A stretch of DNA of 64,000 nucleotides from Pseudomonadota bacterium (GCA_039799905.1 JBDLRP010000019.1:60830-124829), one strand, 5' to 3'. Positions 3,624-38,374 are shown, counted from the first letter of the stretch. Translations and numbers: made by a program. The notes: a model not told the origin generated them from the sequence alone.

Positions 3624-3654
3624 AGCGTGTGATCACCCCCTGAAACTTTTGATT

Positions 3655-3681
3655 TTTTCGGTCAGATTTCTCAATTGTTGA
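3655..3681 (-). promoter_or_regulatory. sigma-28-like promoter TCAA-N15-ACCGAAAA
   Basis: Matches the TAAA-N15-GCCGATAA consensus spacing, upstream of the response regulator. Confidence 0.55.
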
Positions 3682-3689
3682 GGCGTTTT

Positions 3690-3700
3690 AAAAAAAAAAA
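3690..3700. repeat. A11 homopolymer between divergent promoters
   Basis: Eleven consecutive A, seen directly. Confidence 0.9.
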
Positions 3701-3711
3701 TCAACAGGTCT

Positions 3712-3738
3712 TAAATTTTGTCTGCTGACTCCCGATGC
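3712..3738 (+). promoter_or_regulatory. sigma-28-like promoter TAAA-N15-CCCGATGC
   Basis: Consensus-like elements with an exact 15-nt spacer, upstream of the GGAGGT RBS and GTG at 3784. Confidence 0.55.
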
Positions 3739-3783
3739 CTCTCACAGACAAGCCCGGAAAACGACCGAGTTGTGGAGGTTGGT

Positions 3784-4728: not shown

Positions 4729-4747
4729 ACGACGCAGCATATTAAGT

Positions 4748-6049: not shown

Positions 6050-6205
6050 CTGATTTGGTGGCATTTTAAATTCAAGACTCGCAGCTCCACAAGTTGTTAC
6101 ATCTCGCAACTGACGGGTGTGGACCAGCTGACTCTGTTTTCTTCCTCTGCGCGCGATACCATTCTCTCTGCAACACACAAACACGCTTGCGGAGGAGTCC
6201 GGCAA

Positions 6206-9515: not shown

Positions 9516-11081
9516 TTAGTGTTCTCCGTAAAAGAGAATACGGATGCCATCAGCCGTCTTTTCGACAATGCTTGTCGAACGGTTTGAGCGCGAGTATCCA
9601 GCCGCACAGTCGCCGGACTCAGAACCCAGACCTGTGTACCATCCTCCGTCCTGACCACGTCCACGCCAATGTGTCAGCTTACAGGTTGCCGTGGTTTTGC
9701 CTGGTACGGGTTGAGAAACAAATAAATCGGTTCCGAGCTGAACAATGCGGGCAGAATTTGGCGCTACAAATGCCGTTCGGGGGCCACTTTCCTGGATGAC
9801 GTTCATCGAACCCTGCGCATCCTGCAGTGCAAAGGTCGAGTCGTCAGCCCAAATTCTCGCTGACTTTGCCTGTTTGAGCGTGCCCTCATCATTTACACTC
9901 CGAACTGTAACAAAACGTTCCGAATCTTCCTCTACGGAGCTGAGAGTTATTTTGCTGTCACTCACAAAACTCACTATGGTCTTGGCAATGCCGCTTGCAT
10001 TGCTCCATGCAACCGACGAAGCAACGGCGTTGTTCGGGTATCTGCGCAATTCAAGTGATTTTCCTAACGACGACATGCGTGCGGCATTGTTCCAAGAAAG
10101 AAAACCATGATTCCACCAGATGCCGGCTAGATTGATGTCCAGAACACGCAAGTTCTGCGTTCCATCCGGCTGCAGAATATTCTCTCCCGCAGAGCTCCAT
10201 TCATTACGAGCAAAGACACTCGACAGTGCGAAGTCGGGCTTAGAGAACATCTGCCTTGTATAGGCAAAAGCTTGTCCTGATCTGAAGTCGAGCATCAGTG
10301 CGGCACCACTGCGGTTCTTGAAAAGCATCCGGCCGAATTCATCGGCCTCAAAGCTGCTGAATACGCCCGATCGCGCAATCGGCCAAGAAGCCCGGTTCCA
10401 GAGTGTTTTTCGTGCGGCATCCACCCACAACAGTTCGCTGTCGGTTTGAATCACAAGCAACTGCTTGGGCAGCTCTGTACGATTGCCGGCATTGAGTGAT
10501 TTGGAACGGATGGCCCACGCTGGCCAACTCAGGCGGCAGATGTCCTGCTTGCCGGATGCCGTGGCAATGGTTTTTTGCAATTGCGATGCAAAGAGCGTGT
10601 AGTCGCCCATGTTTCCGCGCAGGTAAACCGTGTTCGGATCGGCGTCTTTTTCGGTAGGCAGCGTGACCACTGCCTTGCAGACGCTGCCGTGGCATTCATC
10701 AAAGCTCACTCCCGCTTTTTCTGTGCATTGCGCACGCAACCATACACTTTCAGCACCGTTTGCATGCAGACGAACGCCGCTGAGCTTGGGAAGCTTTGGG
10801 TCATCCCACGCTTCGGGCTGTTGCGACACGGGTGTTTCGTTGTTTTGAATATAGAATCCTGTGCGGATGTGGTCCGGATGAATCGACATCATGTGCAGTT
10901 GCTGCTTGGAGACCTGCAGTGCACTGCGGAACGAGGTGTCGCTGCCGGCTGCGTGATGCTGGGTCGCAACAAGCGCGATGAGTAAAAGCGTTCTGGCTTT
11001 GCACGCGAGGGGTGGCCGGCTCCGAGAGCTGGTATTAAAAAGGTATGTATGAGTGAAAGTGTGTGTCATACTGGGCCTCAA
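9516..11081 (-). CDS. secreted hypothetical protein, last gene of the giant-protein operon
   Basis: Start overlaps the giant gene stop (TTG 11081, or ATG 11069); hydrophobic signal-like segment; beta-rich with several Cys. Confidence 0.7.
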   Translation of the reverse strand: MRPSMTHTFTHTYLFNTSSRSRPPLACKARTLLLIALVATQHHAAGSDTSFRSALQVSKQQLHMMSIHPDHIRTGFYIQNNETPVSQQPEAWDDPKLPKLSGVRLHANGAESVWLRAQCTEKAGVSFDECHGSVCKAVVTLPTEKDADPNTVYLRGNMGDYTLFASQLQKTIATASGKQDICRLSWPAWAIRSKSLNAGNRTELPKQLLVIQTDSELLWVDAARKTLWNRASWPIARSGVFSSFEADEFGRMLFKNRSGAALMLDFRSGQAFAYTRQMFSKPDFALSSVFARNEWSSAGENILQPDGTQNLRVLDINLAGIWWNHGFLSWNNAARMSSLGKSLELRRYPNNAVASSVAWSNASGIAKTIVSFVSDSKITLSSVEEDSERFVTVRSVNDEGTLKQAKSARIWADDSTFALQDAQGSMNVIQESGPRTAFVAPNSARIVQLGTDLFVSQPVPGKTTATCKLTHWRGRGQDGGWYTGLGSESGDCAAGYSRSNRSTSIVEKTADGIRILFYGEH

Positions 11082-14000
11082 TCAGGGTCATCGGGGGTCA
11101 TAAAATAATAAGGATTACCGGCGGAGTCTTTGAGCCACCAAACTCCGCGCAGATTTTTACCTTTTGTATGGTCGATCTCGACATCAATTTTGCAGGAACT
11201 ATTATCCGAAACGTTAGTTTTGTTCATGCAGCGGTCCGTATTCGTCGAGGTCGTCGTGACAAAGAAGAAAGCATTCTGCATTGGGTGGGCGTTGTATCTC
11301 CGCGGTTTGATGAATGTATCATTCGCAGGAACAGAGGGGTCTGCCAGCAGAGGAAAGGTTGTAAAGGTTGTATCGAGAGTCTCTACAGAGGCTTTTGCAG
11401 TTTCACACTTGCCCGTTGCGCAGTCTGCCCAGGTAAAACCACCGTGGGTGTAGTAAAAAATTCGTCTGTCAGTCGCCACCGTTGGGACAGTTGTGTCCTC
11501 AGCTTGCTCCGCTTTTGTGAGATTTGCACCTGCATCGGCAGCTGTTTCTTGTGGCGCGGTTGTCACTGGTGCTGTAATTGAATCCGACTTTCTCAATGGG
11601 ACTCGCAGCACGGGCGAATCTGCAACTAGAACTTTGTTGTTCGATGAAGTGAACCGTAATTTAAACTTACTCGTCATTTTTCCGGCAACGCCCTCAACGA
11701 TAAACTGCGCGAAGTTGTTGTTTAAGATGTCTGCCGTCATACTGGGCTTGTGAATCAATTCGGGGTGGGCTTCGGTTGAGTCCAGTGTCTGCGCAGGTGT
11801 AAACGCCTCAGCACTGCTCAGCGTAACACCTGTTTCATTCTTAAATTGACAGAGCGATTCCGCCGCTCTTGTGGACGTATACATCCATGGAGTGCATTCC
11901 ACGGTAGGAGCGGTGAGTGTCACCGGTGCTGTAATTTGCACAACGCTGCCGCCCAAATGGCTGGCAGAGTCCGGCTTGCAGCTGACATCGCCTCTCAGGT
12001 ACTTGTTTGCAGGCGCAGTCACAGCAAATCCATTTCCAGATGCCGCAAAGACGGCACTGCCGCTTGATCCCGTGGTAGCAGCTGCCACGGTAACGCCTGT
12101 GTCTACGTTGGTGAATGTTGCGCTTGCACCACCTGCTCCGCACGACTTTGTATTCGTGCCGGCGGCAATAAAGTTTCCGGCTTTATCATAATGCCAAGCA
12201 AACAAAGCTCCACAACCCGTTCCGGCAGCCGTTCCTGCTGCGTTGGCCGCACAGGTTCGGGTGAATGAGCACTCGCGGGTTGTCTGGATGTTGTCTCCTG
12301 CAGATACACAGTTGAATACCGAAGGCTGCACATCGTCTGTCGTAAGCAAGGTGCGGCGCACAGCTCCGGCGGTGATCGTCAGATCCTCAGTCACACTGAC
12401 ACCGCATTTTGAGAACGTCAGATTGTGTGTGCCGGCCTTGTAAATCTTGAGAGCCGCATTGCTTGGGTTGCTGTTCGTATTGGTGATCGCAATATTGTCT
12501 GCATAGGCACCTTGATCGTTTCCTGTTACATTGACGGTACTGCAGTTGCCACCGCTCTTGGGAGTGGTTGTACCATTATCAAATTCGTCTTTCGCCGTGA
12601 TGGTTGTTGCAATGCTGGAGGTTGCGGTTGGATAAAGGGCATCCACGGTTCCTCCGGTCAATCCGCCAATCACAAGTTTTGCCGCAGGGCCCGCACTCAC
12701 ACTGGTAATTGTCACTGATGCAGATTTTCCGCGCACGGATGCTGTGAGAGTCCTATCAGTGTTGTGGACTTTTTTGAAGTTGAAAAGCGCATTGGGCGAG
12801 CATTCACCGCTGGTTGAGAATGTGCAGCTCACTGAACCTGTGTGAATGCAGCTGTTAGTTGGAAGATCAGGATCGGCACAGACCAGGTTGGGTTGGCCGG
12901 ATGTGCTGAACGTCACTGTTTGTGCAGTCGCATTGAGTCCAGGCATCGGTACAAGCGAGGTGTCTTTTTGACTTTGAAGTGTCAGTTTTGAAATCTGAAA
13001 GTTTCCGAATCCAGCAACAAGCGTTGTGGTTGCAGGCGCGGAAGCAATGCTCAGAGTGTGGGGTCCGCCAAACAGGCGGATTGAATTTGACGTGAACGTA
13101 TCTGAACCAACAGTCTTCTGACAAGAGATGAGTTCGTTTATGTGGGGAGTTGTGCTGTCGGATGCTCTTGTGCGTGTTTGAACGCCGGCGTTCGCGCCCT
13201 CAAGAGTTCCCCCAACTTTCCAGTCGCAGGTGTGTGTTGATGCTGCGGATGCAAGTTTGTTTCCAAATGCATCGTAGTGATACGAGAACAAATCAGGGCA
13301 GCTGACACCGTCGTTCCCGCCATTCAGAGTGGCGCACGCTACCTCACCATTTGCCGCACTGAAGTTGGGTGCGGTTGTCTCGGAGCTGATGACAATTCTT
13401 CCCAACGTTGTGTTCGACTGAACTGTGAGCGGGATCTGCACGCTCAAGCCGCAACCGTTCGCTGTCACAGGAATACTGTGATTACCGGCCGCTTTGATTA
13501 TTAAACTGTCAATCGGGATCGTGACGTTGGTAGCCGCATCGAAGGAACCAAACGTAAATACTGATGTGTCACCAGCAGGTGAAGTGGGCAAGGCACCCGC
13601 AGTGAAACCAGTGCAGGAGCGGAGGCTATCATTGCCAAAGGTGTCGAAACCCCTCACCGAAACAAGTGTTTTCAATTCAGAGCCCGCGTTCTGGAGGGAT
13701 GTTGGGGCAGTGACTACCAAAGACGCGGCGTTTGCCGAATTCACAATCATGCTGAGCGTGTTCGATGTGATTCCACGAATTCGAACTGCAACGTCATTGC
13801 TGCCGCTCGCTCCGCTGCGGGTCAGGCTGAGTTTCTGATTTGCCGCTATGCCAGACAAAAGCGAGACGGCGCTGTTGTCGCATTTGCCATCTGCAAATGT
13901 GCAGGATGGAGTGTTTGGGACGACATTGTTCGGGGTTCCAAACATCGCTTTTTGCGCCGTGGTGACGAACTCGATAGGTTCCGTGGCGAAATCATAATCG

Positions 14001-17000
14001 TCTCTGATTGTCGCGTCGGTTGATACGTCCACTTCAGTATTATTTTGTCTCGTAAATAGCGATATTTTCCTGATTCCAACATTGTCATTGCCCGCGACAA
14101 CAGGATTGGAAGCAGCGCTAAGTATGCCGTTAATTGCGGTGGTCGATGTTCCTCGCAATTCAAGAGCAACCCTCGAAATTCCACCCTGCACGGGAATTGC
14201 AGTCGACAGATTCGAGGCGCCAGTCTGCGCAACGCCGTTGACTGTGCGTTGGCATTGTAAATTACCATCCAAGAATTTTGAGTGTGTGAGTGTGATGCTC
14301 CGACCCAGTGGTAATGAGGCCGCTGCGGGACCGTTCGATGTTCCAATCGGTGTGTAGATCCATTTGCATGAATTATTTTGCACGTTATTTAGTAGGTTGC
14401 CCTGGTTGTCGCGGAAGTAGGCATAAATCGAATCACAGGTCACGCCGCTTCCCGATTCAGCCGTATGCTTACAGTTAATTTTAGCTGGCTGAGTTGTCGA
14501 CTGCACTGTGGCATCATCAACAATGTTGCTGTTCAGGAATTTGAAGTCGCTGAAGACTCCATTGGTTGTTTTGATGGTATGAGTAAATGAGAAATTACCG
14601 CACGCAGCTGGAGCTGCAAACGTCAAAGTCAAACCAGTCGAGTTTGCATTCCGCAAAGCCGTAGAATTGAGTGCATAGGTTCCCTTGCTGGTGTCGGCAA
14701 CGCTAATCGCAGTTCCTTTGTTGGCGGCTGTGAGAGTTGTTCCATGGATTGTGGGTGCTGTGCCAATGGCCGATTTGTGGTTGTCGAACAGGTCAGTCAA
14801 TTGAGTTGCAGAGATGGTCAAGTCTTCGCTGCACGACGGATTATCAAAGGCATCGGTCAGATTGAATGTGCCGCTGATTGTAGCATCTGCTGCGACGGTG
14901 TCAGGAACTGTTCGCGAAATGACCTTCGTCGGATTACCTTCCGCAACAATAATATTGTTGCGTACGTTGGCATTTGCTCCGGTGATATTGCTCACACCGT
15001 GCACGTTGATTGTCAGCGCGCGGGCCGTCGCGTCGGCCCGGACGAAGCTGAAGTTGAACGTCGTAGCACAGGCACCTGTTGCGCTGAAGTTACAGTCGGT
15101 GGCGGGAGTTGATGTGAACAGAGTGCCGTCCAAGCCCGCACTTGCAGTTGTCGAGAAACTGATCGGCAACGTGCCCGCATATTCGGCATTGATGACAGTG
15201 TTGTTCTTGCGTCCCTTCAGCTGCAATCCGCTCACTGCGAAATTGCTTGTGCCTGCTGTGATATTACCGCTGGCAGGAAGGGTCGCATCAACACTTTGCA
15301 CACCACCAAAGAGCACAACACCAACTGTTCCTTCTTCTGTTGCTCCACCCGCCTTCACGCAGGTGAGTCTTGCATCGAGTGCGCTATTTGCTGAAACGCT
15401 GATGCTGGGAGAGGGTTGGTTGTCCAGCGCTGGAACCGTCAGAGCAGGAGAGCTCACCGCAAGATTTGTGAGTGCCCATGAATCACAGGTATCTCCTGCA
15501 CGGTGATTGCCAAATTGGTCGAAGAACCATGCGCGGATTGTGTCGCAACTTGTTCCTCCGCCCGAGAGCAACGAACACTTATCCTCGTCCACGTTCGTCT
15601 TGGAGGCCGTCGTCGATTTGTTGAGAAAGAACTTGTGAGCAGCACCGGCAGAAATATTCAAGTTGAGGAGGTGGCTGACCCCGCATGTGTTGATAGTCAG
15701 GGTATTCGCTCCCGGACCTGTGAGTTTCATGTCAGTGAGTTTGTAAACCAAGGCCGTAGCATCAAACGAGTTCAGAGCCGGACCCGTGAACTTCGTTGCG
15801 TTGTCGTTGTTTCCGTTCGCCAAGACGGTTGTTTGAGCGATTGTAGAAGAGTTGGTGGTCGCACAGGTGTTGCCGTTGTCAGCCCTCTTGTCGGTCTTAT
15901 TTCCGAATTGGTCCAATAGATCGATGTGAAGATTGAAAGTTTGATCGGCTTGTCTGTCCGCATTCGTTTGGTTGATTGATGGATTGGAATCAATAATTGC
16001 GTCTCCGGCAACGTTGACGAGTTTGAATGTCGTTGTGGTTGCAGATGCATTTGCCGGGTTGACGTTAAAGTTGCCCGAGTTGATGCTCTTGCCTCGGACA
16101 AATGCTGTGAACGAGACTCCTGTTTCCTTGCGGGTGAAGTGCAGCGACAGCGCCGTCGTCGGGTTTGGTGATGTTCCGCTGGTGCAAACACCATCCACAA
16201 AATTGCAAGTCCATGCAGGGTTGACCACCTCATTTGGATTTCCGGTGACGGCCTTCTGCGCAGTCGTTTGAAGTGTGACCGACTCCTGGTTGAGGTCTTC
16301 TTCAATGGCTGGAAATGTCAGAACCCCAGAGTTATCATAGCTGGGACCCTTGAGAGTGAGTGAGGTGAGACTGAACGCAGCGCCTGCGACGACGTTTGTC
16401 GTGCTGGAGTGCGCCATTGCTAGACTCTCTATGCCGCCGAAGAAATGAATCGAATGACTCTTGTCGTCGTCGTTGTCTACAACGCATTTAACCCTGCCAT
16501 CAATCCAGTCGGAGCTTGTGAGTCTCGTGGAGCTTGTTGTTCCTGTATTTGTGAGTGTTGCGGCAGCTTCGTTGGAGGTCGGGGTTGTTCCACCGGTTTT
16601 TGTGTATGTCCACGATGTGCAGTTCTGTCCGTCTCGTACGTTTCCGAATGAGTCGTAAATGAATGCATTGAGTGTGTTGCAGACGACTCCCGAGCCAGAG
16701 CCAGCGAGAGCGCAGCGCTCGCGCAATATATCATTCGAGGTGTTGCCGCTTGGTGCAGCGTTGCCCGTTGTCACGCGCGCAAATGCACGCTCGGCCTTGG
16801 GAACGATACGCAGCTTGTACACCGTTGTTCGTCCGCAGGCTGTGAAGGTTAGGTCGGTGGTTGTTGCCTTGCGGATGAGAAGGTCTTCAACCTCAAATTC
16901 ACCAATTGTACCTGCTTTTGCCGCAAAGATATGGTCTGCATCTATCAGTGTAGACGCAGCGCTGTCCACCGGCGCATTTAGGTTTGCGGAAGATGCTATT

Positions 17001-20000
17001 GTCATTCCGGCTTGAGTAGCAACACAACCCACGGCTGTTCTGTTATCGAACTGGTCGAATGCGTTGATGGTTGCACCAAAGGCATCGCCCGCGCTCAGTG
17101 GTGTTGTTTCGTTTTTCAGATTTGCGTCTGTGTTGGCGGTTGTCCAGACCCGAGCCGCGATGCGGCTTGCCGTGGTCGGTGCGACGTTGAACACTGCCGG
17201 CGAAAACACTTTTCCACGAACAAAGACGCTGAACGTGATGCCGTCCTGAGCCTTAGAAAAATTGAGGTTGAGTGCATCGGCTATACTGGGTGCGGGATCG
17301 CCGTCGCACACGCCGGCAACAAAATTACAGGTCCAAGCCGGCTTAACGACTTCGGCAGGGTTTCCAGCCGATGCCTTCACAGCTGTCGTTTGCAACGATA
17401 CAGGTTCGGCATTGAGGTTATCTGGAAGGGCAGCCATGCTGAAGACGTCAGCTGTGTAGGTCGGCCCGGTGAGTTGCACCGAGTTCAACGCAAAAGCCGA
17501 TCCTGCGGTCACGGCTGCAGTGCTCGTATGGGTTACGTCAAGCTTGGTTATTCCGCCAAAGAACTGAATTGAGTGAGTGATGGCTCCGTTTGCGCATGTG
17601 ACTGTGCCGTCCATCCAATCGGTGCTTGTGATTCGGGTTGTGCGCGCGCCTCCAGTGCTGCTTCGTGTTACCTTGTTTCCATCTGACTCAAACAGAGTTC
17701 CCGAATGTGTCGTTCCTGTTGTCGCCGCATAAGTCCACGTCGTGCAAGTGTCTCCTTCGCGCAAGTTTCCGAAGACGTCATACATGAAGGCATTCAGTGG
17801 TTCGCAGGTGACACCCGCTCCCGATGCAGCCAATGGGCATCTTTGTTTGAGTGTCGCGGCAGCGGTGTTTGCCGCCGGTGCTGCTTCGGCCGTGCTCACA
17901 CGGGTATACGAGTGCGCTGCGGGAACAATCTTAATATCGCGCGTTGTGGTTCGCCCACAGGCTGTGAAGGTGAGTGTTGTTGTTGTGGCCTTCTTGATGT
18001 TCATGTTGTTGTTGACGCTGAACCGTCCGGTAAATCCGGCATCTGCGGCAAAGGCAACACCACCACCGGTCAACTGCGACGCTCCTCCAAGTGGGTCGTT
18101 CAGGTTGACTGAAGATGTGATTGTCATTGCTGCGGCGTTGCAGTTTCCAGATGTATCGTTGCTGAACTGGTCAACAGCGTTCACTGTCGCGCGGAAGCTT
18201 TCTCCTGCGACCAAAGGAGTTGCAACGCTGCGTTGATTCGCTTCGGTCGTCGGATCGGCACCCGTGTAGACCCGTGCGGTAATCGAATCGGCGTTGTTTG
18301 CTACCACGTTGAAGTTGGGTGTTGTGTAGGTCAAACCGCGCACTTTAACAGTCAAGTTCCTTGCTGTTTCAACCTTTGTGAAGCTCGCACTCATCGCGGT
18401 TGTGCACTCGGCCTTGCTGTTTTGCGAAAAGTTGCATGTGACTGCTGCTGACGGGATGACAGCATTCGCATCTGGATCGTTGGCCCGCGTTGCGTTGCTC
18501 GACAGTTCGATGGTTTCATTTGTCAAAACCTGCGGGAGAATGACCGCTGTGTTGTCTCCGGCCGGACCATGCAGCTGAACCGAGGTAATAGAAAAGTTGC
18601 CGTTCAAGGCTGTCAGATTACCTGTCGTGTGGCTTACATTCATGAATGCAATACCGCCATGCATTGGCAATGTTCTGTTAAAGGCGCCGCGCGTGCATTT
18701 CAATGTTCCGTCAATGAAGTTGCTGTGATTGACTCGCACCGATGCCGTGTTTGCTTCCGCGTTGGTGTTTTCGGCTGTGAACGGTGTAGGCACGGTGTAA
18801 GTTCCAGCAGGAATACTCGCGTTGTAGGCTGGGGCATCGCGTAAGTCGAACTGCCAATGGTCGCATGTGTCGCCGATGCGTTGGTTGCCATGCGCATCAA
18901 AGAAGAACGCATTGACGAATTGGCAGGTGGCACCAGTGCCTGTGGCGTTGAGCGGGCAGTTGAGTGAGGTCAGGCTCGCTGCGGGTGCAGCGGCACTGGT
19001 GTGCAGGCGAATCTCATTAAGCACAGCCGGTTGAACGCGGATGGTCAGGTCTGCTGTCAGGCCGCACATCTTATAGCGGAGCGTGTGGTCGCCTGCCTTG
19101 CGGACATTCAGGCCCGTGCTTGTGCCTGGGGTAGATTCGATAACCCAGTGGCCAAGCGCAGTGTTTTGGAAAAGTCGGTCGGCAGTCGTCAAAGTCGAAT
19201 TGGTATTGTCGAGCGTTCCACCCACAACGGTGATGTCATCTGCTGCCGCCGTGCATGCTGTTGAATTGGAGCCATTGATGAAGTCAGTCGGGTTACCAAA
19301 CTCATCCACGACACGGATGTTGGCTCCCACGTTGTCGCTTGCCAGCATCGGATTTGCGACTGTGATGCGGTCGGTGTCGATGGTTCTCCATAGGAACGGA
19401 GAGATCTGGTGTGCACCTGCGGGTGTGACCGTCAGTGCCGGTAAAGCTGCAGTGACGTCGCGATAGCTGACCGTGATGACGCGGTTGGTTTCCGCACGGC
19501 GCAGGCTGAGGTTTGCATTCAGCGCGCAGGCACCACTTGCATTGAACGTACACGAGACTGTGGTGCTGGCAACCATTGGCAGTGTCGCATCGGTCAACGA
19601 TGCTCCGCTGGAGCCACTCGTGGAACCCAGAACAAGATTCTGTGCTCCAAGCCCGCCAATATCGTCCTTGTTCACTTCGCTCTCAACGAGTGAGCTGTCG
19701 ATGTTTGAAGTGTCGCTGAGCGCGACTTTTTTCATACGTGCTTGGATGTCGTTGACGGTCAGGTTGTTGGCTGCAGCTGTTTTGCTTGTGGCAGCAGCCG
19801 TGCCGCCAAAGGTGTGGGTGGCTGTCAGGCTCGTCAGACCACCCGACATCAGTGCAATGCCTTTGCTGCCGCCAGTCGACACACACGCAAGTCTACCGCT
19901 CAGGAAGCTGCCGATTGTGTCGGGTGTTTTGATCGATTGGCTCGTGCCGGTGGCTGCCAACGTGAAGCCGTCGCCATCTGTTTTGCTCGTTGATCCTGAA

Positions 20001-29581: not shown

Positions 29582-29669
29582 TATTGAATTCTCCCGCGAA
29601 CGCCCTAAACGTCCACAGGTGAGTTCGTCCGATTGTGCAAGAAACTTGAGGACTCAATTACAGCGTCTG

Positions 29670-30260
29670 TCAAAGGTAAAGAAGTGCACCAAATCGGGGT
29701 CTTAGCAATAGACCTGAGAAGTCTGCGACGCTTGTGCCCACGGCAATGGAGGCATCAACGTTGACGTCCAGCGCCACATTGCCGAACAACTTATAGTGGG
29801 TCCCCATTCCAACACCGACCGAAAAGTAATTCGCGCTCACTTCGGCGAGTTTCACTGCACCAAACGTATCAATGAGGTAGCGCCCCCAGCCAACCTTGGC
29901 GTGCAGGTAGGGTTTGACTGATGACGAGTATCGCAAGGTGCTGGAATCGTGCAGGTCCTCAAAATCAGTTCCATATTGGAATGGGTAGTATTGTATGCCA
30001 CCCCGGGTCTCCATGATTTGGGTGAGATTGGCATTTGCAGACTTTCCAGCTTGAAATTCGACAACTGCTGCCAGAATTCTCGACCTGAACGAAAGCCACC
30101 TGATGTCGACATTTTGCACGTTCAGATCTTGTCCGGCTCTGTACCCGCTGATTGAGGAAACAATGGCTCCTGTCGAGATTCCCAAGGCGGACACGACTTC
30201 GGCGTGCGCCATTTGTGGTAACAGAAAAAGCGGGAGAAGTGTCAGAAGTCTTCTCATCAC
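29670..30260 (-). CDS. small outer-membrane beta-barrel protein
   Basis: Signal peptide AHA-E; amphipathic strands (KPYLHAKVGWG, VGVGMGTHY, ALDVNVD); C-terminal FGALLYL; GTGA overlap with the upstream gene. Confidence 0.75.
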   Translation of the reverse strand: MMRRLLTLLPLFLLPQMAHAEVVSALGISTGAIVSSISGYRAGQDLNVQNVDIRWLSFRSRILAAVVEFQAGKSANANLTQIMETRGGIQYYPFQYGTDFEDLHDSSTLRYSSSVKPYLHAKVGWGRYLIDTFGAVKLAEVSANYFSVGVGMGTHYKLFGNVALDVNVDASIAVGTSVADFSGLLLRPRFGALLYL

Positions 30261-30874
30261 TTTTTGCCCCGCGCTTTTCCTTTTCCGCCGGCGGGAGCAT
30301 CGGGGCTTGCGCCGGTTTCGGCCAGCAGTGCGCGAATTTCTGTATCCGACGGGTCGAGTGCGAGCGCCTTGTAGAACGCCTCGCGGGCCTTTTCGGCCTG
30401 ATTTTGCAACATGTAAACAGTTCCTTCGAAAGTATACGCTGCTGCAATGTTTGGGTTTGCCGCTCGTGATTTTTCGAGTGACTTCAGCGCTTCCTTAAAG
30501 TTCTTATCGATGATCTGCCGCTCAGCTTCCAGTAGAAACCGCACTGCGGTGTTGATGTCCGCAGAGTCGTCGGAACCTATGGGAAGCATATTTGCTTCGA
30601 TTTCAAGTTTTCCGCCACCCAGATTAGGAATGACGAAGTTTTGATTGCGGTATCCGGCTCTCTTCAGAGTCAAAACGATTGTGCTCTTGTTAGAGAACTT
30701 GCTGAGTTCAGCCATCTCCTGCTGCAACGGTGTCTTGCCCAGCAATTTTCCGTTCTCTTGTCCTGGGACGGACATTATCACATCCACTCCGGGAGGTTTG
30801 CTGGTGATGCTGACGCTCGCGCAACCAGCAAAGAGTGGAAGCGCAAGACAAAGAGCGGAGAGTCTCAGTTGCAT
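30257..30874 (-). CDS. PEGA-like + TPR lipoprotein
   Basis: LFAGC lipobox; ITSKPPG..LGKTP..RAGY (PEGA-like); TPR helices AREAFYKALALDP; GAGGT RBS before ATG 30874. Confidence 0.85.
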   Translation of the reverse strand: MQLRLSALCLALPLFAGCASVSITSKPPGVDVIMSVPGQENGKLLGKTPLQQEMAELSKFSNKSTIVLTLKRAGYRNQNFVIPNLGGGKLEIEANMLPIGSDDSADINTAVRFLLEAERQIIDKNFKEALKSLEKSRAANPNIAAAYTFEGTVYMLQNQAEKAREAFYKALALDPSDTEIRALLAETGASPDAPAGGKGKARGKK

Positions 30875-31098
30875 AGATGCGACCTCGAAAAGTGTTCGGC
30901 CGTGCAAGTCCGGCAGCAAGAAAAATATGCCTGAGAAGAACGACGGACTCAAAGTTACCTTACCGTGACGGTCGTCAGCCGTGCCGATGCTCGTGCAATT
31001 TTTGCCGCAGTCCCGATGAATCATTTTTCAAATGTTCCGATGAGGTGCGGTGGCAGGAGAGGCGGATGATCCGCTAGTTCTGCAGAAGGCAGAGGAAC

Positions 31099-33372
31099 AT
31101 GAAGCGCTTGAATTTTAAAAATTCAACATACATTGTCGGGTTGCGCCGCGCGTTGGTGCAGTCGCTGGTGTCTGCGCGGCGTGGTCTTCTTTACTGTTTG
31201 CTTTTTTTGACACTGCTCTTGGGCGGAATATGGCCACACTCGCTTTTGGCACAGACAAGTGGTCGCGCAACACTGACGCAGACTCTTGATGCAAAGGTTG
31301 CCGAGGCTGAGCAGTTCCTTGAAGAACGTCTCAACAAGCGGTTGGAAGCCGTCACGGATCCGCCTTTCCTGACAACTGTCCGAGTCGATTTTCCCGTGAC
31401 AAAGCTCAATTCGCTGCGACAGTCGGCGGGTGGTAACGTGTCGAAACTCTCGCGCGGTGCTTTGTCAAAAGGGATCAGCAACGACGACGCGCTCATCAGC
31501 CTGCTCAATGCACTGACACCGCTGGAAATCCTCTCCAACGCGCAACGGGTTACAGTTGTTGTCACGTTGGACCAAACCTTTCCCAAGGATTCGGTTGCCG
31601 ATCTCAAAACAACCCTGCAGTCGTACCTGCGTCTGAATTCGAAGCGCGGCGACAAGCTCGACATCAATCAGAAGGACCTCACAGCCGGCCGTTCGAAGTC
31701 GAAGGTGGAGAGGGCCGAAAAGGAAAGTCAGCAATACAAGAGCCAGATTGACAATCTGCAGCGAGAGCTTGAGGCCATCCGCCGGCGCGAGGGTGATGCA
31801 CAGCGCGACGTGACCGAAGCACGTCGTAAAGAGCAGGACGCGCAGGCTCAATTGCGCGAGGCACAGCGTGCGACCGAAGATGCCAAGCAAAAGCAGCGCG
31901 AGGAGCAGGACAAAGCAGCAAAGGCGGAGGAAGAACGGCGCAAGCTTTCCGTTGAAATCGACGATCTTAAAAAGCAGATCACCGAGCTCACTGAAAAGAA
32001 TAAAGACATTGCTGAAGAGGCAAAAACGCCGATCGGGAGGTTCAAAAAGCTTGTCGCAGGTCTCGAATTGCCGTTGACGGTTGTACCGGCGGTGCTTATC
32101 GGGCTGATAGGAATTCTGGTGATCGTTTTGATTCAAACCTCGCGCGTCAAGTCGGCTAGCACCGACATGACACAGACAATGATCCAGGTTTCAGCAGCTG
32201 TGGCAAAAATCGGCGAATCGATTGTTCAGGCCGCCAAGGTACAGGGCAAGCAACAGGGCGATGCAATCAATGTATCCGCAGGCGGAGCTGCAGCCCTTCA
32301 ACAGAACATGCAATCATCCAACGATTCCACCTCCGAGGAGCTCATCGCTCTTGAGAAGGAAGCACAAAGCCTTCTCGCAGATATGAATCAAAGCCGGTAT
32401 CCGATGCTCAGTATTCTTAAAGACTGGCTTGCAGACAAGCGCGAGCGCACCAAGTTTGCAGGATTCTCGGAGGCTGTCGGGCCCAACGCCGCGCGCGAAA
32501 TCTTCAAAGTCTTTCCCAAGGAAGAGGTCGAGGCTCTTGGCAACGCATTGTATGAGCCACTGGCAAAGGCACAGGCTTATAAGGTGGTTCTCCAGCTCTA
32601 CCGGCTCGCCGGACGCGAAATCAGCCGCAAGCCGAGTTACTTTACAAATCTCGACCTCACATACCTCATTGGTGCCACCGACATCGAACTCAGCAACGCG
32701 TTGTCCGAAGCCGGCACTGTCGAGGCCGCGCGGTTGATGGTTCTGCTCACACCCGAGCGTTGTGCGCGCATCATTCCGGGCATCCGTAATCACGACAGCA
32801 TGGAATTGCTCGAGGCGATGCGGGAGTCGACCGGGATGAGCGAGGACGATGCCAAGGCTGCACTTGCCGACGTCAAGGGCAGAATGAACAACGACCGCGG
32901 CGGTGACTCCAAGTTCGACGTCACCAACCACCTCATGCTCATGCTCGATGCTCCCAATCCGGAGTTCAGAACGGCGGTCAGCCGTGTTCTGCGCGCCGAC
33001 AAGCAGCTCTCGCAGCAAGTGGGCTCGCGCGTTGTCACCATCGAGGAGGTTCTCCGCTTGGATGATGAAACACTTGCCGAGCTGCTCGCTGAACTCGAGC
33101 CTGCCGATGTTGCGACTCTGCTTGTGTCATTGCCAGAGGAGTTGAATGATCGCATCAATCAGTTCTTCACTTCAAACAAGATCCAGGCCGCCATCCGTCA
33201 GGAGCTCGACAAGTTCGAGCGCTCAAAGATGGCACGAAAGCGTGCGGAATTCGAAGGTCAAAAGATACAGGCTGCACTCATCCGTCAAGTCAAGGACATG
33301 CGCGAGCAGGGCCTGATTGAAATGGCGGATGATGGCGAGTCCGGCGGTGAAGAAGAGGCGGAGGCATCCTGA
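31099..33372 (+). CDS. FliF(RBM3)-like / FliG-like fusion protein (putative rotor)
   Basis: EQFLEERLNKRLE..VRVDF and RVTVVVTLD..NSKRGDKLDI resemble FliF RBM3; coiled coil; TM at 32068-32133. Then FliG-N-like VGPNAAREIFKVFPKEEVEAL, FliG-M-like AARLMVLLTPERCARII and FliG-C-like TIEEVLRLDDETL..QVKDMREQGLIEM. Confidence 0.75.
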   Translation: MKRLNFKNSTYIVGLRRALVQSLVSARRGLLYCLLFLTLLLGGIWPHSLLAQTSGRATLTQTLDAKVAEAEQFLEERLNKRLEAVTDPPFLTTVRVDFPVTKLNSLRQSAGGNVSKLSRGALSKGISNDDALISLLNALTPLEILSNAQRVTVVVTLDQTFPKDSVADLKTTLQSYLRLNSKRGDKLDINQKDLTAGRSKSKVERAEKESQQYKSQIDNLQRELEAIRRREGDAQRDVTEARRKEQDAQAQLREAQRATEDAKQKQREEQDKAAKAEEERRKLSVEIDDLKKQITELTEKNKDIAEEAKTPIGRFKKLVAGLELPLTVVPAVLIGLIGILVIVLIQTSRVKSASTDMTQTMIQVSAAVAKIGESIVQAAKVQGKQQGDAINVSAGGAAALQQNMQSSNDSTSEELIALEKEAQSLLADMNQSRYPMLSILKDWLADKRERTKFAGFSEAVGPNAAREIFKVFPKEEVEALGNALYEPLAKAQAYKVVLQLYRLAGREISRKPSYFTNLDLTYLIGATDIELSNALSEAGTVEAARLMVLLTPERCARIIPGIRNHDSMELLEAMRESTGMSEDDAKAALADVKGRMNNDRGGDSKFDVTNHLMLMLDAPNPEFRTAVSRVLRADKQLSQQVGSRVVTIEEVLRLDDETLAELLAELEPADVATLLVSLPEELNDRINQFFTSNKIQAAIRQELDKFERSKMARKRAEFEGQKIQAALIRQVKDMREQGLIEMADDGESGGEEEAEAS

Positions 33373-33411
33373 TATGAACGCCAGTCGCCAGTTGCTTGAG
33401 AAAGGGCAGTT

Positions 33412-34206
33412 ATGAATTCAACCGTCATAGGTTTCATTCTCGCGTGGGTGTTTTGTTTTTACATCATTCAGCACTCCGTCAAGGACCTGAAGGTGTTCAA
33501 CGACATTCCCGGATTTTTGTTGATCGTCGGTTGCACCGTGGCGATGTCGCTTATGGCCAACACATTAGAAGAAAATAAAAGAATTTTTAAAGCCATGACA
33601 GATGGCTTCAAGCGGCGGGTCGACAAAAAACAGGAAATTGTCACCGAGATTGTCACCGTTGCCAAAGTTACCAACGGTGATACGCGTATGCTGGAACAAC
33701 AATTGGGCAGCATTCAGCAGCCGTTCTTCAAAGAAGGCGTCGGTCTCATTTTGGACCGCTTCAAGCCCGATCAAATTGAATCGATCATGTCTGACCGTAT
33801 CGAAAGTCACAAACAATACCTTCACAAAAAAACACATGGCCTGAAAGCTTTGGCTAAGTATCCTCCGGCATTCGGAATCATTGCCTGTGTGGTGTCGCTG
33901 ATTGCGGTGATGCAGCGTCTGGGCGGCGAGCTCAAAGCAGGCGATCTAGGGCCGTCCATGGCGGTCGGGTTGGTGGGAACACTGATCGGACTGCTGGCAG
34001 CAAACTTCATCATCATGCCCTTGGGCGAGAACTCGGAGCATCGAGATAAAATCGAACTCAAGGAACGTGAAATTATTTTGCAGGGTGTGTTGATGCTCGC
34101 AAACAAGGAAACACCGCTCTTTGTGCAAGAAAAACTCAACTCCTATCTGAAGGAAGACAAACGAGTGGATGTGCTGGGAGTCGGCGGGGGTGGAAAAGCG
34201 GCATAA
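33412..34206 (+). CDS. motA: MotA/PomA-family stator A subunit
   Basis: Four hydrophobic segments; PFFKEGV, YPPAFGII and LGPSMAVGLVGTLIGLLAANFIIMPL motifs. Confidence 0.9.
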   Translation: MNSTVIGFILAWVFCFYIIQHSVKDLKVFNDIPGFLLIVGCTVAMSLMANTLEENKRIFKAMTDGFKRRVDKKQEIVTEIVTVAKVTNGDTRMLEQQLGSIQQPFFKEGVGLILDRFKPDQIESIMSDRIESHKQYLHKKTHGLKALAKYPPAFGIIACVVSLIAVMQRLGGELKAGDLGPSMAVGLVGTLIGLLAANFIIMPLGENSEHRDKIELKEREIILQGVLMLANKETPLFVQEKLNSYLKEDKRVDVLGVGGGGKAA

Positions 34207-34224
34207 GAATTGACGAGGTGATTT

Positions 34225-35190
34225 TTGGCGCGCGGCTTGTTCGATAACTCAAGAGATCCATCTTCGCCCGCAGACAGCGCGGCGGGGAAAACTCTTGACA
34301 AAAAAAAGCTGCCGCAGATGCCTCTTCCAAAAAGAAAGAGCAGTTCTGAAGACGAGGGCGGCGGTGGCGGCGGTCATGAAAGTGATGACACACTCTGGCT
34401 CTACAGCTTCAACGACATGCTTTTCAATTTGCTGCTTTTTTTTATCGTGATGTACTCAATTTCACAAGTCGACGAAAAGAAATTTGCGGAAGTTCAGCAG
34501 GCACTTCAAGGCGATAAAAAGCCGGCGCTGCTCAAAGACGATGACAAGGAAGGCGTTGTGGTCGGTCCACGCAACGGCGCGCTCGATGCCAAGCAGCTTG
34601 CCTCATCCGGTGGTGAGGCAGGCGGTGACAAAAGCGCCGAAATTGCCGCTGCAATCCGCTTTATGCTCGAGCGTTCGGAAAAATCAAAAGTCAAACTTGC
34701 CAAGGGTGCGGGCAAGGAAGATGAAAAGAAGGAAGAGAAAAACAACAAAAAGAGCAAATATATTTCGGGAACCAATATCCCGCTTCCGATGAAACTTGTT
34801 TTTCCCCACACCGAATTTTTTCAAAAAGGCACTGCCGATTTGAGCCCCGAGGGGGCTGAGAATCTCTCGCGCCTCGCAGAAGAAATTAAAGCAGTCGAGA
34901 AGCTCGGCCGCGCAGATATCGAGGTGCATACCGAATTTTCCCGCGATATGATTGCTAATCTTAAAGGGCAGTCGCAGCTCAGTACACTCAAAATCGCGAC
35001 ACTGCGCGCCGGTGTGATGTTCGAGTATTTTGTCAAAGGAGGAGTTCCGCACAAGAAGGTGGTGAGCGCCGGTTATGCCGACGGACGCCCTATTGTTCTC
35101 GGTGAGAATCTGACCCCACAGCAGCGCGCTGATTTTTCAGCCAGCAACGATCGTGTCATTGTTAGTCTGTTGACGGAGAAGGGGCCATGA
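34225..35190 (+). CDS. motB: MotB/PomB-family stator B subunit
   Basis: TM WLYSFNDMLFNLLLFFIVMYSIS with the conserved Asp (34414-34416); plug-like helix; divergent OmpA-like domain (IEVHTE, LRA, AGYADGRP). Confidence 0.88.
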   Translation: MARGLFDNSRDPSSPADSAAGKTLDKKKLPQMPLPKRKSSSEDEGGGGGGHESDDTLWLYSFNDMLFNLLLFFIVMYSISQVDEKKFAEVQQALQGDKKPALLKDDDKEGVVVGPRNGALDAKQLASSGGEAGGDKSAEIAAAIRFMLERSEKSKVKLAKGAGKEDEKKEEKNNKKSKYISGTNIPLPMKLVFPHTEFFQKGTADLSPEGAENLSRLAEEIKAVEKLGRADIEVHTEFSRDMIANLKGQSQLSTLKIATLRAGVMFEYFVKGGVPHKKVVSAGYADGRPIVLGENLTPQQRADFSASNDRVIVSLLTEKGP

Positions 35191-36122
35191 AGCTCTCATC
35201 CCTCGAACTCACCCAGTTTCAAAAAGTTCTTGGTGGACTGCTGTTTGGTCTGTTTGTCTTTTATTTCCTTGTCAGCCGCCGGCAGCAGGACAAGTGGGAT
35301 GTCCTCAAAAAAGGACTGGCCGAATCGTATGGTGAATCGGCATTCGCACCCACCGACAGCCCGGTCTATGCGCTCGATGTCGAGGGTGAGGCGCGCTACA
35401 AGAAGGCAGCATGGCTCAATTGGTGGCCGCTTAAAGCAGGCGTGGAGCTGCATCCGGGAGATCTCGTGTATGTTTCCGACGAAGCAAAGGTCGTTTTGTT
35501 TTTCCTCGATCAGGATTCACTCGTCACATTGCCTGAAGGGTCGCTCTTTCATGTCGGCCTGACGGTTCCGCAAATGTCCAAGCTGCGCACATCAGGTGGT
35601 GTGTCGGCGGAAGACGCCAAAGATCCTGAAAAGAAGATGAAGAACGACGCAACAGAGGCGCGTTTCTCGACACGAGTCATTCAGAACCCGACAATCAAGA
35701 AGGCAGGTGAGAGCGATGATGCGCCCGCAGCGCAAGCAGCCTTGCCCGTGAGCGACGAAGACCTCAAAATTGTCCGCAACACGCGGACAATGCCCATTCG
35801 CTATCCGGGGCCGTTCGTTGAGCTCTATGCAGATAAATTCCCCACATCGATTCCTGTGACCTTCGACCAACTCCCGCGCAACGGACAGCTCTGGGGCTAT
35901 CTGTGGAAGGGGAAAGAATTGGAGCCACAGTGGTCATCGGTCGGCACTGCCGGTTTTGCACGGGTGCCCATCGAGAAACCGGGGTTATTTGTTTTTCAGG
36001 CGATGTCCGACGACGAATTGTATGCCTCTCCTCCGATAGTCATCCGCGCAATCAAGCGCGACGAAGAAGACTATCTTCCCGAGGATGAGCGTTGGTTTGA
36101 GGGGGTAAGAATTTTTCAATGA
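35187..36122 (+). CDS. membrane-anchored FecR-like periplasmic protein
   Basis: N-terminal TM; VEGEARYK..W.PL..G..L..GD.V.V...AKVVL.F beta pattern; ATGA overlaps at both ends. Confidence 0.6.
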   Translation: MKLSSLELTQFQKVLGGLLFGLFVFYFLVSRRQQDKWDVLKKGLAESYGESAFAPTDSPVYALDVEGEARYKKAAWLNWWPLKAGVELHPGDLVYVSDEAKVVLFFLDQDSLVTLPEGSLFHVGLTVPQMSKLRTSGGVSAEDAKDPEKKMKNDATEARFSTRVIQNPTIKKAGESDDAPAAQAALPVSDEDLKIVRNTRTMPIRYPGPFVELYADKFPTSIPVTFDQLPRNGQLWGYLWKGKELEPQWSSVGTAGFARVPIEKPGLFVFQAMSDDELYASPPIVIRAIKRDEEDYLPEDERWFEGVRIFQ

Positions 36123-38374
36123 ATCTCCCACTCAACGGCAAAAATGAAAAATTGACGAACAAGGCGTTGTTCAAGATTTTCGACTTTCTGGCACTGTGGG
36201 AACGCAGCAGTCTGAAAAGCCGTTTGAGTTTCGTTCAAACGTTTATTCTGGTGGTGAGCATCGTTGCACTGCTTGTCACTGGAATTTCGCTCTACCGCAC
36301 CGACAAGCTCTCGTACGTCTATGAAAACCACTACCTCAAGACGAGCGCTGTTGCGACGCGTCTGAAATTGTATTTTTCCAATCTGCCTCGACAGGAAATT
36401 CTGACCGCCAATTCTGCCGACGAGTCGAAAATGGCGGCACGCTACGGTTTGCCGCAGATGCCGGCCGAAGATCAGGTTTTCGTGGGTCGTCTCAAAGACA
36501 AAGTATACGTCTTTGGGCGTCACGGGGGAGAAAAGTTCTGGCGCACCGAGCTCGACCCAAATGTGCGCCTCTTTGAGGGTATTGACGGCAAGAGCTATAT
36601 ATCAAACTCGTTTGGACAGTTCCTTTCGTCCTATGACCAGCGCGACGTGAACGCAGAGAATTTTTCGACCCGTCCGGGAACAAAAAAGTTCATCAAGAGC
36701 GGTTTGCGTGAGGGTTTCACGCGCTATACGGACGGTAAGTCTGAATGGATTATCTCGTTCCGCGAGATTCCCGGAACCAACGTCATCGTTTTCGTTGAAA
36801 CCTCGCTTGCATCGCTGAATGCGCCGATCCGAAAATTCGCCGGTCTGGCCGCAATTCTTGCTTTGTGTTTGGTCGGCATGGTCATTCTCGTCACCGACTT
36901 CCTTCTGCTTGGCCTGTTGCGTCCGCTGCGCGAAATCGTCAATGCGATGTTCAAGGTGTCTGCGGGTCACTACGACATCACCTTCAACGTCAAATTCGAC
37001 GAAGAGCTCAACTTCGTTGCGCGCGGACTCCAGCAAATGGCCAAGCGACTGCAGATCCGCGAGGGAGAGCTCAAGCAGATCAGCGCCAACCTCGAATTCA
37101 ACCACAAAGTTTCCAAAGATATGACTTTGGCATCCAAACGCGAGGACTGCATCCGTCTTTTTATCCGTGAAATCCGCCAATATGTGCGATTCCGCACGAA
37201 CATGGATGCCATCGTCCTTGTTTTCGACAACAAGACCGGCGAATGCAAGGGTGCCGCTGACTATGTCACAAGCGGAGTCGTGGTTCCGGAAATCAAAGTC
37301 GTTCCAGCCGAAGAAGCTGGCATCGATCTTGATGCGTTAAATCAAGACAAAGAATCAGCCTCCATGGTCGATCACACAGTCGTCTTCCGGATTTTTGCCG
37401 GCGGCAAGCCGAAGCTGTTTTTGTTGCTTGACGGTTTTCCCGAAGAGACGCTTACCCCGACCGAGCGCCACCTGATGACGCTCCTGTCGGCATCGCTCGA
37501 ACACGCCTTGGTGATGGTCGACTTTCAGGAAGAGCAATTGCAGAACGCTCACTTCGAAAACGAACTTCTCACCGCGCAGGCCGTTCAGGAAGCCCTTCTT
37601 CCTTCCGGCCGTCCGGTGATGAATGCAGAACTCGACTACTACTACGAAGCTGCGACGCGCTGCGGTGGTGACTGGCTGTTTTTTGAAAAGACTGACGAAT
37701 CACCATGGCTGCACGGATTGGTTGGTGACGTGACGGGCCACGGTGTACCCGCTGCGATCATGACGGGAGTTGCCTATGGCTCTTTCATGGGAGCGCAAAC
37801 GGTGATGGACATCGTCAAAGCAGGCGAAACCATGGGCGAGACGGAGCGTCTCGAGTTCATGGCCTCAATTCTTAACCGCGCGATCATGAGTGTGGGTAAA
37901 TCGGCGCGGTTGATGACCATGTGTCTTGTTTCGCTCAACACCGAAACGGGCGAGTTGTACTACGCCAGTGCGGGTCACACTCCCTTGCTTTGGTATAAGA
38001 GCAAAGCGAAAAAGATTTCGCCGCAGACATCTACAGGTAACCCGTTGGGAGTCTCGCTCGATCGCAGCATTACGGTGAAAAAATTGCAGCTGGAGGAGGG
38101 CGATTTGTTCGCCATGTACACCGACGGTCTGCTCGAGAACCATGGCCCCAAGAATGAAATGATGAGCAAGCGCCGTTTCTACGATCTACTCTCCTCGGGC
38201 CGGCCAGTGACAGAAATCCGCGAGCAGATCATGACCGAGGCCAAGGGGCTGTGGGGTGAGGAAGAATATGCCGACGACGTGACAATGATGATTGTGCGTT
38301 GGCCAGCCTCCGAGGTTGTCGATACGGCATTCGACAAGACTCCCGCAGCTGAATCTGCCTTGATGGCTGGTTAG
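36119..38374 (+). CDS. membrane sensor with Cache-like, HAMP and PP2C/SpoIIE phosphatase domains
   Basis: Two TMs; HAMP; AQAVQEALLP, GGDW, GDVTGHG, ASAGH, YTDGL and DDVT motifs. Confidence 0.92.
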   Translation: MNLPLNGKNEKLTNKALFKIFDFLALWERSSLKSRLSFVQTFILVVSIVALLVTGISLYRTDKLSYVYENHYLKTSAVATRLKLYFSNLPRQEILTANSADESKMAARYGLPQMPAEDQVFVGRLKDKVYVFGRHGGEKFWRTELDPNVRLFEGIDGKSYISNSFGQFLSSYDQRDVNAENFSTRPGTKKFIKSGLREGFTRYTDGKSEWIISFREIPGTNVIVFVETSLASLNAPIRKFAGLAAILALCLVGMVILVTDFLLLGLLRPLREIVNAMFKVSAGHYDITFNVKFDEELNFVARGLQQMAKRLQIREGELKQISANLEFNHKVSKDMTLASKREDCIRLFIREIRQYVRFRTNMDAIVLVFDNKTGECKGAADYVTSGVVVPEIKVVPAEEAGIDLDALNQDKESASMVDHTVVFRIFAGGKPKLFLLLDGFPEETLTPTERHLMTLLSASLEHALVMVDFQEEQLQNAHFENELLTAQAVQEALLPSGRPVMNAELDYYYEAATRCGGDWLFFEKTDESPWLHGLVGDVTGHGVPAAIMTGVAYGSFMGAQTVMDIVKAGETMGETERLEFMASILNRAIMSVGKSARLMTMCLVSLNTETGELYYASAGHTPLLWYKSKAKKISPQTSTGNPLGVSLDRSITVKKLQLEEGDLFAMYTDGLLENHGPKNEMMSKRRFYDLLSSGRPVTEIREQIMTEAKGLWGEEEYADDVTMMIVRWPASEVVDTAFDKTPAAESALMAG

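Follow-up and report, generated by a model that had tools for sequence, protein, structure and literature searches.

Bacteroidota have in GldLM an ion motor of the 5:2 type, which resides in the inner membrane and is combined with a part that spans the periplasm and with SprB, an adhesin of very large size at the surface. The torque interface between FliG and MotAB has, to our knowledge, so far been treated as exclusive to flagella. In its accessible part, a recent survey (PMC12505986) assigns every stator of this sort to a 'flagellar' clade, and places AglRQS, the TolQR-like motor of the Agl-Glt machinery of Myxococcus and Bdellovibrio, among the 'generic ion transporters'. According to the available parts of two reports, laboratory FliF-FliG fusions of Salmonella and Vibrio can still form rings (PMC10941966, PMC11481574), which shows a fusion of this kind to be feasible in structural terms. 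A fusion of FliF and FliG that is natural, has a MotAB of its own and lies outside the flagellum was undescribed in the literature that we searched, which was chiefly open-access and therefore gives no proof of absence. Here we analyse a candidate for such a system, a cluster of nine genes (positions 9516 to 38374) in a stretch of 64,000 nucleotides from a bacterium recorded as Pseudomonadota (GCA_039799905.1, JBDLRP010000019.1:60830-124829); this whole stretch is called the window below.

An initial annotation, made from the sequence alone, had described the cluster as two divergent operons, and the open reading frames (ORFs) called here put all nine genes where it had placed them. Among its labels, MotA, MotB, HAMP-PP2C, TPR and FliG were recovered by Pfam, whereas PEGA, FecR and Ig-repeat were not recovered by family models and the barrel was recovered only weakly. 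The explanation that we favour, and to which we give an even chance, is that the cluster is a non-flagellar module made from flagellar motor parts, which would work as an ion-driven rotor-stator machine of the envelope and act on outer-membrane components and a giant surface lipoprotein.

The FliF-FliG fusion protein

The first rightward gene (31099-33372, + strand) encodes a protein of 757 residues (P0001). It begins with a hydrophobic helix at residues ~10-44, which is either a signal peptide or a first transmembrane helix. In the AlphaFold model of the whole protein (16 relatives in the alignment; predicted local distance difference test, pLDDT, 73; predicted template modelling score, pTM, 0.34), this is followed by a compact alpha/beta domain at ~53-192, RBM3-like and predicted to be periplasmic (pLDDT 84-93), by a single helix of 105 residues (201-305), a transmembrane helix at ~325-347, a disordered linker (378-410) and an all-helical, FliG-like part (409-736). 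A separate model of the RBM3-like domain, built with 26 relatives, reached a pLDDT of 88 and a pTM of 0.80. Its comparison with 48,161 chains by VIA-align gave the S-ring/RBM3 domain of FliF as the top three matches (Z 13.9, 12.4 and 12.3); the FliF matches, from Vibrio and Salmonella, had root-mean-square deviations of 1.4-1.9 A over 96-98 residues, with 1.4 A over 98 residues for the match of Z 13.9. The next rows were also ring-building proteins (EscJ, 8.3; SpoIIIAG, 7.8; PrgK, 7.8), and the 12 best rows of a Foldseek search with the domain were all MS-ring chains of FliF. The Pfam family YscJ_FliF had no match in the fusion at E<=0.01.

The periplasmic part of the model is smaller than that of FliF: it holds only one globular domain of ~140 residues, and neither RBM1 nor RBM2 was found in it. 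The site of the beta-collar is taken by a short helical, partly low-confidence insert (~112-146), and the 98 aligned residues fall within FliF ranges of ~200 residues.

The cytoplasmic half was recognised at the level of sequence as well. Pfam matched FliG_C (1.4e-6), MgtE_N and, at 24.9 bits against a cut-off of 25, FliG_N within residues 539-741, and the best Foldseek match of the whole model was a full-length FliG (8wiw_3, 319 columns), with FliG chains of 310-328 residues aligned over 319-328 columns. The fusion has all three armadillo-like domains of FliG, the N-terminal, the middle and the C-terminal one. A profile of 16 fusion members matched FliG_MC of 1lkv with an E of 3.7e-26 and, weakly, a FliF chain of 144 residues (E 0.007). 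E702 of the torque helix is the same in all 16 members and aligned with the Glu of 'KDELE' of T. maritima, which corresponds to the position of D289 in E. coli; the R281 position is Lys in P0001 and, by eye, Lys or Arg in the other aligned members, and the D288 position is variable. The residue pairings used here are those of the torque helix in the accessible part of PMC12505986. The FliM-binding motif EHPQR is not kept, as EHPQT of T. maritima aligns with EAGTVE of P0001 in a non-conserved stretch of the profile.

Since the RBM3 fold is joined to a FliG match, the label of a FliF-FliG-like fusion given in the initial annotation is upheld, for a reduced version that has a single ring-building domain. 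Judged by its sequence and its predicted structure, the protein is a natural fusion of the FliF(RBM3)/FliG type. An exhaustive profile search returned 96 representatives at E<=1e-30, and among the 150 best family representatives, taken at 50% identity, ~130 were full-length, with 600-842 residues.

The MotA and MotB stator

The fusion gene is followed by motA (33412-34206, +) and motB (34225-35190, +). MotA matched Pfam MotA_ExbB (3.5e-16), and its best solved relatives were flagellar MotA, with 6ysf at 3.4e-27, and PomA, the range being 3.4e-27 to 4e-22. With NCBIfam models, those for PomA, MotP and MotA scored 1e-32 to 1e-21 as against 0.0026 for TolQ, all under the equivalog cut-offs, which makes the protein a divergent member of the flagellar stator type. 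It has the four helices and the large cytoplasmic torque domain of MotA, with flagellar MotA and PomA as its nearest relatives. In a quick tree, read for its topology only, 18 MotAs of the module formed one clade, apart from 7 other genes of the MotA/ExbB family in the genome from which the window comes. MotB carries a plug (Pfam MotB_plug, 2.1e-13) and an OmpA-like domain (4.8e-7), and the channel Asp in SFNDML aligns with the Asp of 'TFSD' in MotB 6ysf_A. By these sequence comparisons the stator is of the flagellar type.

Even among distant members, the C-termini of the fusions and of many module MotAs read -AS, -AA or -KAA (33364-33372 and 34198-34206 in the window). As sequences, these ends recall C-terminal degradation tags.

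Flagellar genes elsewhere in the genome

The initial annotation had asked whether a separate canonical flagellar set exists. In the 3.38-Mb genome that holds the window (94% complete), other contigs encode FliG (6.3e-41), FliF (7.5e-54), FliM (9.8e-62), FlhA (6.5e-252) and 8 flagellin matches. The canonical FliG lies on contig C39, and the fusion is encoded apart from the flagellar genes. The fusion is therefore not the only fliF/fliG of a flagellated genome, and the fusion with its MotAB constitutes a separate module. FliF was also found in both Bdellovibrio-type genomes.

The statement that the window has no other flagellar genes stood in part. Among its ORFs of at least 180 residues, which this check covered, we found no flg, flh, fliM, fliI or flagellin gene; however, a stand-alone FliG-like gene had gone unmentioned. 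This gene (56732-57688, +), directly after priA (54581-56668), encodes a FliG paralogue of 318 residues, distinct from the FliG of contig C39, with weak but complete matches to FliG_N, FliG_M and FliG_C (~1e-9 each). A further set was noticed on contig C29 of the same genome (L022, 9814-13850, -), where a single operon encodes MotA (276 residues), MotB (218 residues) and a FliG_M/FliG_C protein of 848 residues, and a PilZ protein is encoded at a distance of 5 kb. The 848-residue protein is only faintly like the fusion in the window (E 0.001).

The leftward genes

The divergent operons share an intergenic region of 224 bp (30875-31098, no strand). Its length depends on the start of the first leftward gene, a lipoprotein at 30257-30874 (-) whose ORF extends to 31024; translation most likely starts at an internal Met at 30874, before the lipobox (MQLRLSALCLALPLFAGC), which leaves the gap of ~220 bp that had been described. 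A scan of the window with Rfam found no family except the start of a 23S ribosomal RNA at 63563, and no riboswitch near the cluster. The single sigma-70-like match lies at 31112-31139, just outside the intergenic region.

The lipoprotein has a C-terminal TPR domain (Pfam TPR_1, 2.7e-7), and all 21 homologues in the alignment keep its lipobox Cys. PEGA had no Pfam match at E<=0.01, and what resembles it is a motif pattern in the alignment of homologues. Overlapping the lipoprotein gene by 4 bases, the next gene (29670-30260, -) encodes a secreted protein of 196 residues with an N-terminus like a signal peptide and an OMP_b-brl match of E 0.0029, which is below the cut-off. A gene of like size and class occupies the same slot in the Bdellovibrio-type loci (OMP_b-brl, 1.1e-5), but homology between the two was not detectable (hhalign probability 2.7%). 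From its sequence, the 196-residue protein is probably a small outer-membrane beta-barrel.

The giant gene (11078-29581, -) starts 88 bases downstream of the barrel gene on the same strand. Its product (P0005, 6167 residues) begins with the lipobox LIFTLSC and has a high content of Thr, Ala, Ser, Gly and Asn. It contains nine repeats of ~375 residues at ~2788-5796, spaced 362-387 residues, and 23 D-x-[FAYQ]-G-N motifs, and a BLAST of the protein against itself gave no off-diagonal rows. It had no match in Pfam, NCBIfam or the sequences of the PDB, so the Ig-repeat label is unconfirmed. The last leftward gene (9516-11081, -), overlapping the giant gene by 4 bases, encodes a protein of 521 residues with an N-terminal hydrophobic stretch and no Pfam or NCBIfam match. 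Homologues at E<=1e-5 were found neither in the stretch of a congener that spans the position (L113) nor in 24 related loci, and its membership in the system is doubtful.

Putative signalling genes

Two genes follow motB, and the junctions of motB with the first and of the first with the second are both ATGA-type, as had been reported, with 4-base overlaps by coordinates and ATG starts. The first (35187-36122, +) encodes a membrane-anchored protein of 311 residues (P0002) that matched no Pfam or NCBIfam family; the sole pointer to FecR is an Atlas lead, at 0.86, to FecR clusters, and the protein is possibly FecR-like. The second (36119-38374, +) encodes a membrane phosphatase of the HAMP-PP2C (SpoIIE) type, with Pfam matches to SpoIIE/PP2C (2.4e-37) and HAMP (1.5e-5) and an NCBIfam match to SiaA (4.5e-21) below the cut-off. 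In another locus with a fusion gene, L051, a Ser/Thr protein kinase of 1020 residues with MORN repeats (4675-7737, +) is convergent to the fusion gene, and no PP2C gene is present on the stretch examined.

Distribution, synteny and rates of change

The closest database relatives have 69-97% identity, and the labelled ones are recorded as Silvanigrellaceae bacterium. A search with the single protein matched 23 of 121 genomes of the class, including 11 of 12 in the genus and none of 13 in a sister genus, and a profile search across the phylum matched 26 of 131 genomes. A search with a subfamily alignment turned up two genome records, one from an uncultured Pseudobdellovibrionaceae bacterium and the other a metagenome-assembled genome labelled Pseudomonadota; in that phylum, the profile of the subfamily had matches in 6 of 301 genomes.

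To look at synteny we used 24 loci from 21 genomes, the window excluded, all of them picked for a fusion homologue and many on short contigs; counts were made by jackhmmer and tblastn. A motA gene was present in 21/24 loci (in the three others the contig ends at the cluster) and motB in 20/24, the lipoprotein with its lipobox Cys and PEGA-like/TPR features in 19/24, PP2C in 15/24, the family of the 311-residue protein in 14/24 and the small barrel of the Bdellovibrio type, by profile, in 11/24. A large lipoprotein, encoded after the barrel or lipoprotein gene or facing the motor operon, was present in six: L090 (2338 residues), L091 (2370), L104 (2440), L105 (1374) and, both truncated where the contig stops, L052 (430 plus at least 981) and L112 (at least 421). 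The fusion and MotAB therefore do co-occur with lipoprotein, barrel and giant genes, contrary to what the initial annotation named as fatal to its proposal. The fusion, MotAB, the lipoprotein, HAMP-PP2C and the 311-residue family travel together across deep divergence.

The arrangement of the genes is kept too. L090, L091 and L104 have the same divergent layout, with lipoprotein, barrel and giant facing fusion, motA, motB and PP2C, at only ~19-28% identity to the proteins of the window; the layout is identical in two genomes of the Pseudobdellovibrionaceae type, and L105 has it with its lipoprotein of 1374 residues. The fragment in L112, from a different family within the phylum, is a homologue of the window's giant (E 3.8e-26) and lies opposite a paralogue of the fusion. 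All eight large proteins checked start with a lipobox, and the giants of related loci contain Fn3, Big_9 or cadherin-like domains where Pfam matches them at all. In five metagenome contigs with a fusion of a further subfamily, the lipoprotein was found in 3/5 and motA in 2/5.

Compared with three congeners, the proteins of the window differ in their rates of change. Identity is 80-85% for the fusion, 82-90% for MotA and 75-78% for MotB, 53-80% for the lipoprotein and 35-60% for the barrel; the giant has 24-35% over long alignments, and in the closest relative its N-terminal 273 residues reach 58%. Change is thus fastest in the outward parts, as would suit a conserved motor with an output that is exposed and diversifies.

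Two irregular loci were noticed. In L059 (3427-4209, +) the motA of the module is split into two ORFs of 146 and 105 residues, and in L055 (7132-9078, -) an in-frame TAG lies within the fusion match, in a genome of 1.2 Mb that is 74% complete. Both may reflect decay or sequencing errors.

Comparison with known systems

The module would work most like the rotor-stator core of the flagellum, with which it shares the RBM3-like fold, the N, middle and C domains of FliG, the Lys/Arg and Glu of the torque helix and a MotAB of the flagellar type. The flagellum, however, has two polypeptides, FliF and FliG, where the module has one. Unlike flagellar FliF, the fusion is without RBM1 and RBM2 and has a helix of 50-130 residues between ring domain and membrane; unlike flagellar FliG, its FliG part is fused to a membrane protein, with no fliF, fliH or fliM neighbours among the window ORFs of at least 180 residues. 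The module also lacks the FliM/N, export gate, rod, hook and filament genes of a flagellar cluster, and is instead encoded with an outer-membrane lipoprotein, a barrel, a PP2C and a giant lipoprotein. The laboratory fusions described in the accessible text of the two reports are engineered or mutant full-length FliF and FliG inside the flagellum, whereas the fusion here is natural, shortened and part of a separate gene set.

The likeness to GldLM and SprB would lie in the general idea only, since the module has a stator of the MotAB type with a FliG partner and its giant is a lipoprotein. Membership in the type IX secretion system or in gliding machinery was rejected, as Pfam found no GldL, GldM, GldK, GldN, PorV or C-terminal domain of that secretion system in the cluster proteins, both halves of the giant included. 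With Agl-Glt the module has in common a non-flagellar motor of the MotAB family, there used for surface movement, and an occurrence in related predatory lineages; AglRS, however, is in the TolQR-like clade and has no partner of the FliG type, whereas the module MotA scores with PomA/MotP/MotA over TolQ. Zorya (ZorAB) is a further MotAB-related pair outside the flagellum. A defence function of this kind was also rejected: in 10 cluster proteins PADLOC found no ZorA, ZorC, ZorD or ZorE, and ZorB matched only the plug region of MotB (0.00099).

Possible function of the module

In the mechanism that we propose, the fusion would probably form a ring similar to the MS ring, and MotA5B2, anchored to peptidoglycan, would turn it via the conserved charges of the torque helix. 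The periplasmic helix and the RBM3 ring could then pass the motion to the outer-membrane lipoprotein and the small barrel, a step to which we give slightly less than an even chance. Possibly, HAMP-PP2C and the FecR-like protein would switch the machine on an envelope signal. More tentatively, the complex of lipoprotein and barrel may hold the lipid-anchored end of the giant and move, tension or pay it out, which could serve adhesion or movement on surfaces. Export, display or propulsion of the giant by the motor, as first proposed, is something that we, too, only infer from the sequences.

Several results weigh against this explanation. The mutual arrangement of the domains is not fixed by the whole-fusion model with its pTM of 0.34, and ring formation by the fusion is a prediction from its fold. 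The helix between RBM3 and membrane ranges from ~50 to 130 residues across members, which is a poor fit with a rigid shaft of fixed length. At the position of R90 in E. coli MotA this subgroup has Asn or Gly, with an Arg 4-5 residues later in an alignment that is uncertain here, and other members keep Arg or Lys; at the E98 position the window protein has Glu, but some members have Gln or another residue. The absence from 13/13 genomes of the sister genus and the presence in 26/131 of the phylum make the module dispensable. Eighteen of the 24 loci have no adjacent giant, and in L106, L108 and L110 the barrel gene is followed by small genes or genes on the opposite strand. Moreover, the giants of two lineages have no detectable similarity to each other, nor do the barrels, so the argument from a common slot is positional.

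The missing giants could also mean that the rotor-stator is real and non-flagellar but that the giant is a mere neighbour, the motor serving the lipoprotein and barrel in outer-membrane maintenance, in the export of other substrates or in mechanosensing into PP2C. This would agree with the lipoprotein (19/24) and PP2C (15/24) being common in a sample where adjacent giants are rare, with the giants of different lineages being not detectably related, and with large surface proteins being common in the carrier genomes. We nevertheless regard it as unlikely, as the order lipoprotein, barrel, large lipoprotein recurs in the window, L090, L091, L104 and L105 at ~20-28% identity of the motor proteins, and the homologue of the window's giant in L112 faces a fusion paralogue. 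In the window the giant gene lies, on the same strand, 88 bases beyond the overlapping lipoprotein and barrel genes, and many contigs stop at the cluster, so that absence of a giant is under-tested. A different possibility, which we consider quite improbable, is that no ring forms and nothing rotates: fusion molecules would be pulled one by one by MotAB, in the way that ExbBD pulls TonB, in a Ton/Tol-like transducer with an adaptor of the FliG type. A long periplasmic helix with a distal globular domain generally recalls the design of TonB, TolA and GldM, and the variable helix length would suit such a transducer. Yet the distal domain is a ring-building motif nearest to the S-ring of FliF (Z 13.9, whereas the next folds reach ~8), flagellar motors are not known to use a complete FliG whose torque helix is conserved other than in a ring, and MotB resembles torque-generating stators in having a plug and a domain that binds peptidoglycan.

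The flagellar character of the stator and the S-ring fold would be expected, too, if the module were an accessory or alternative part of an ordinary flagellum, that is, a second rotor/stator set or a stator scaffold under conditional use. All three carrier genomes tested are flagellated. Some polar flagella have periplasmic TPR scaffold proteins, and the TPR lipoprotein would be given a like role. We hold this to be very improbable, because the fusion has a single ring-building domain without RBM1 and RBM2, EAGTVE replaces the FliM-binding motif, and the cluster includes no genes for export, rod, hook or switch. Canonical FliF and FliG are present elsewhere, and two MS rings presumably cannot fit one basal body; besides, the 13 sister-genus genomes are all without the module, which would weigh here if they are flagellated.

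Returning to a non-flagellar rotor-stator machine that acts on the giant, its boldest form is a second rotary organelle of flagellar descent, in which a fusion ring spun by MotAB drives or reels, via lipoprotein and barrel, a fibre of the fast-evolving giant lipoprotein, as a motility or adhesion machine of Bdellovibrionota-like lineages that is neither flagellar nor of the type IX secretion system. We regard this form as somewhat unlikely. If it were true, the flagellar motor's core would have been reused as a general engine of the envelope. The module would be a natural minimal rotor, with one ring-building domain and FliG per chain, its own stator and no export apparatus, and so a simple natural system in which to study ring assembly and torque generation. 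It would bear on the origin of the flagellar motor, and the way in which some bacteria that are predatory or live on surfaces deal with surface lipoproteins of very large size may find an explanation in it.

Other features of the window

Beyond the cluster, at 6119-8376, a subtilase gene of family S8 is convergent with a gene for a coiled-coil protein with an OmpA domain. The pair is kept at the same place in the congener stretch L113, with 71% and 76% identity, respectively. At the other end of the window, the start of a 23S ribosomal RNA gene (63563-64000, +; Rfam LSU_rRNA_bacteria, 333 bits) is cut by the window end.

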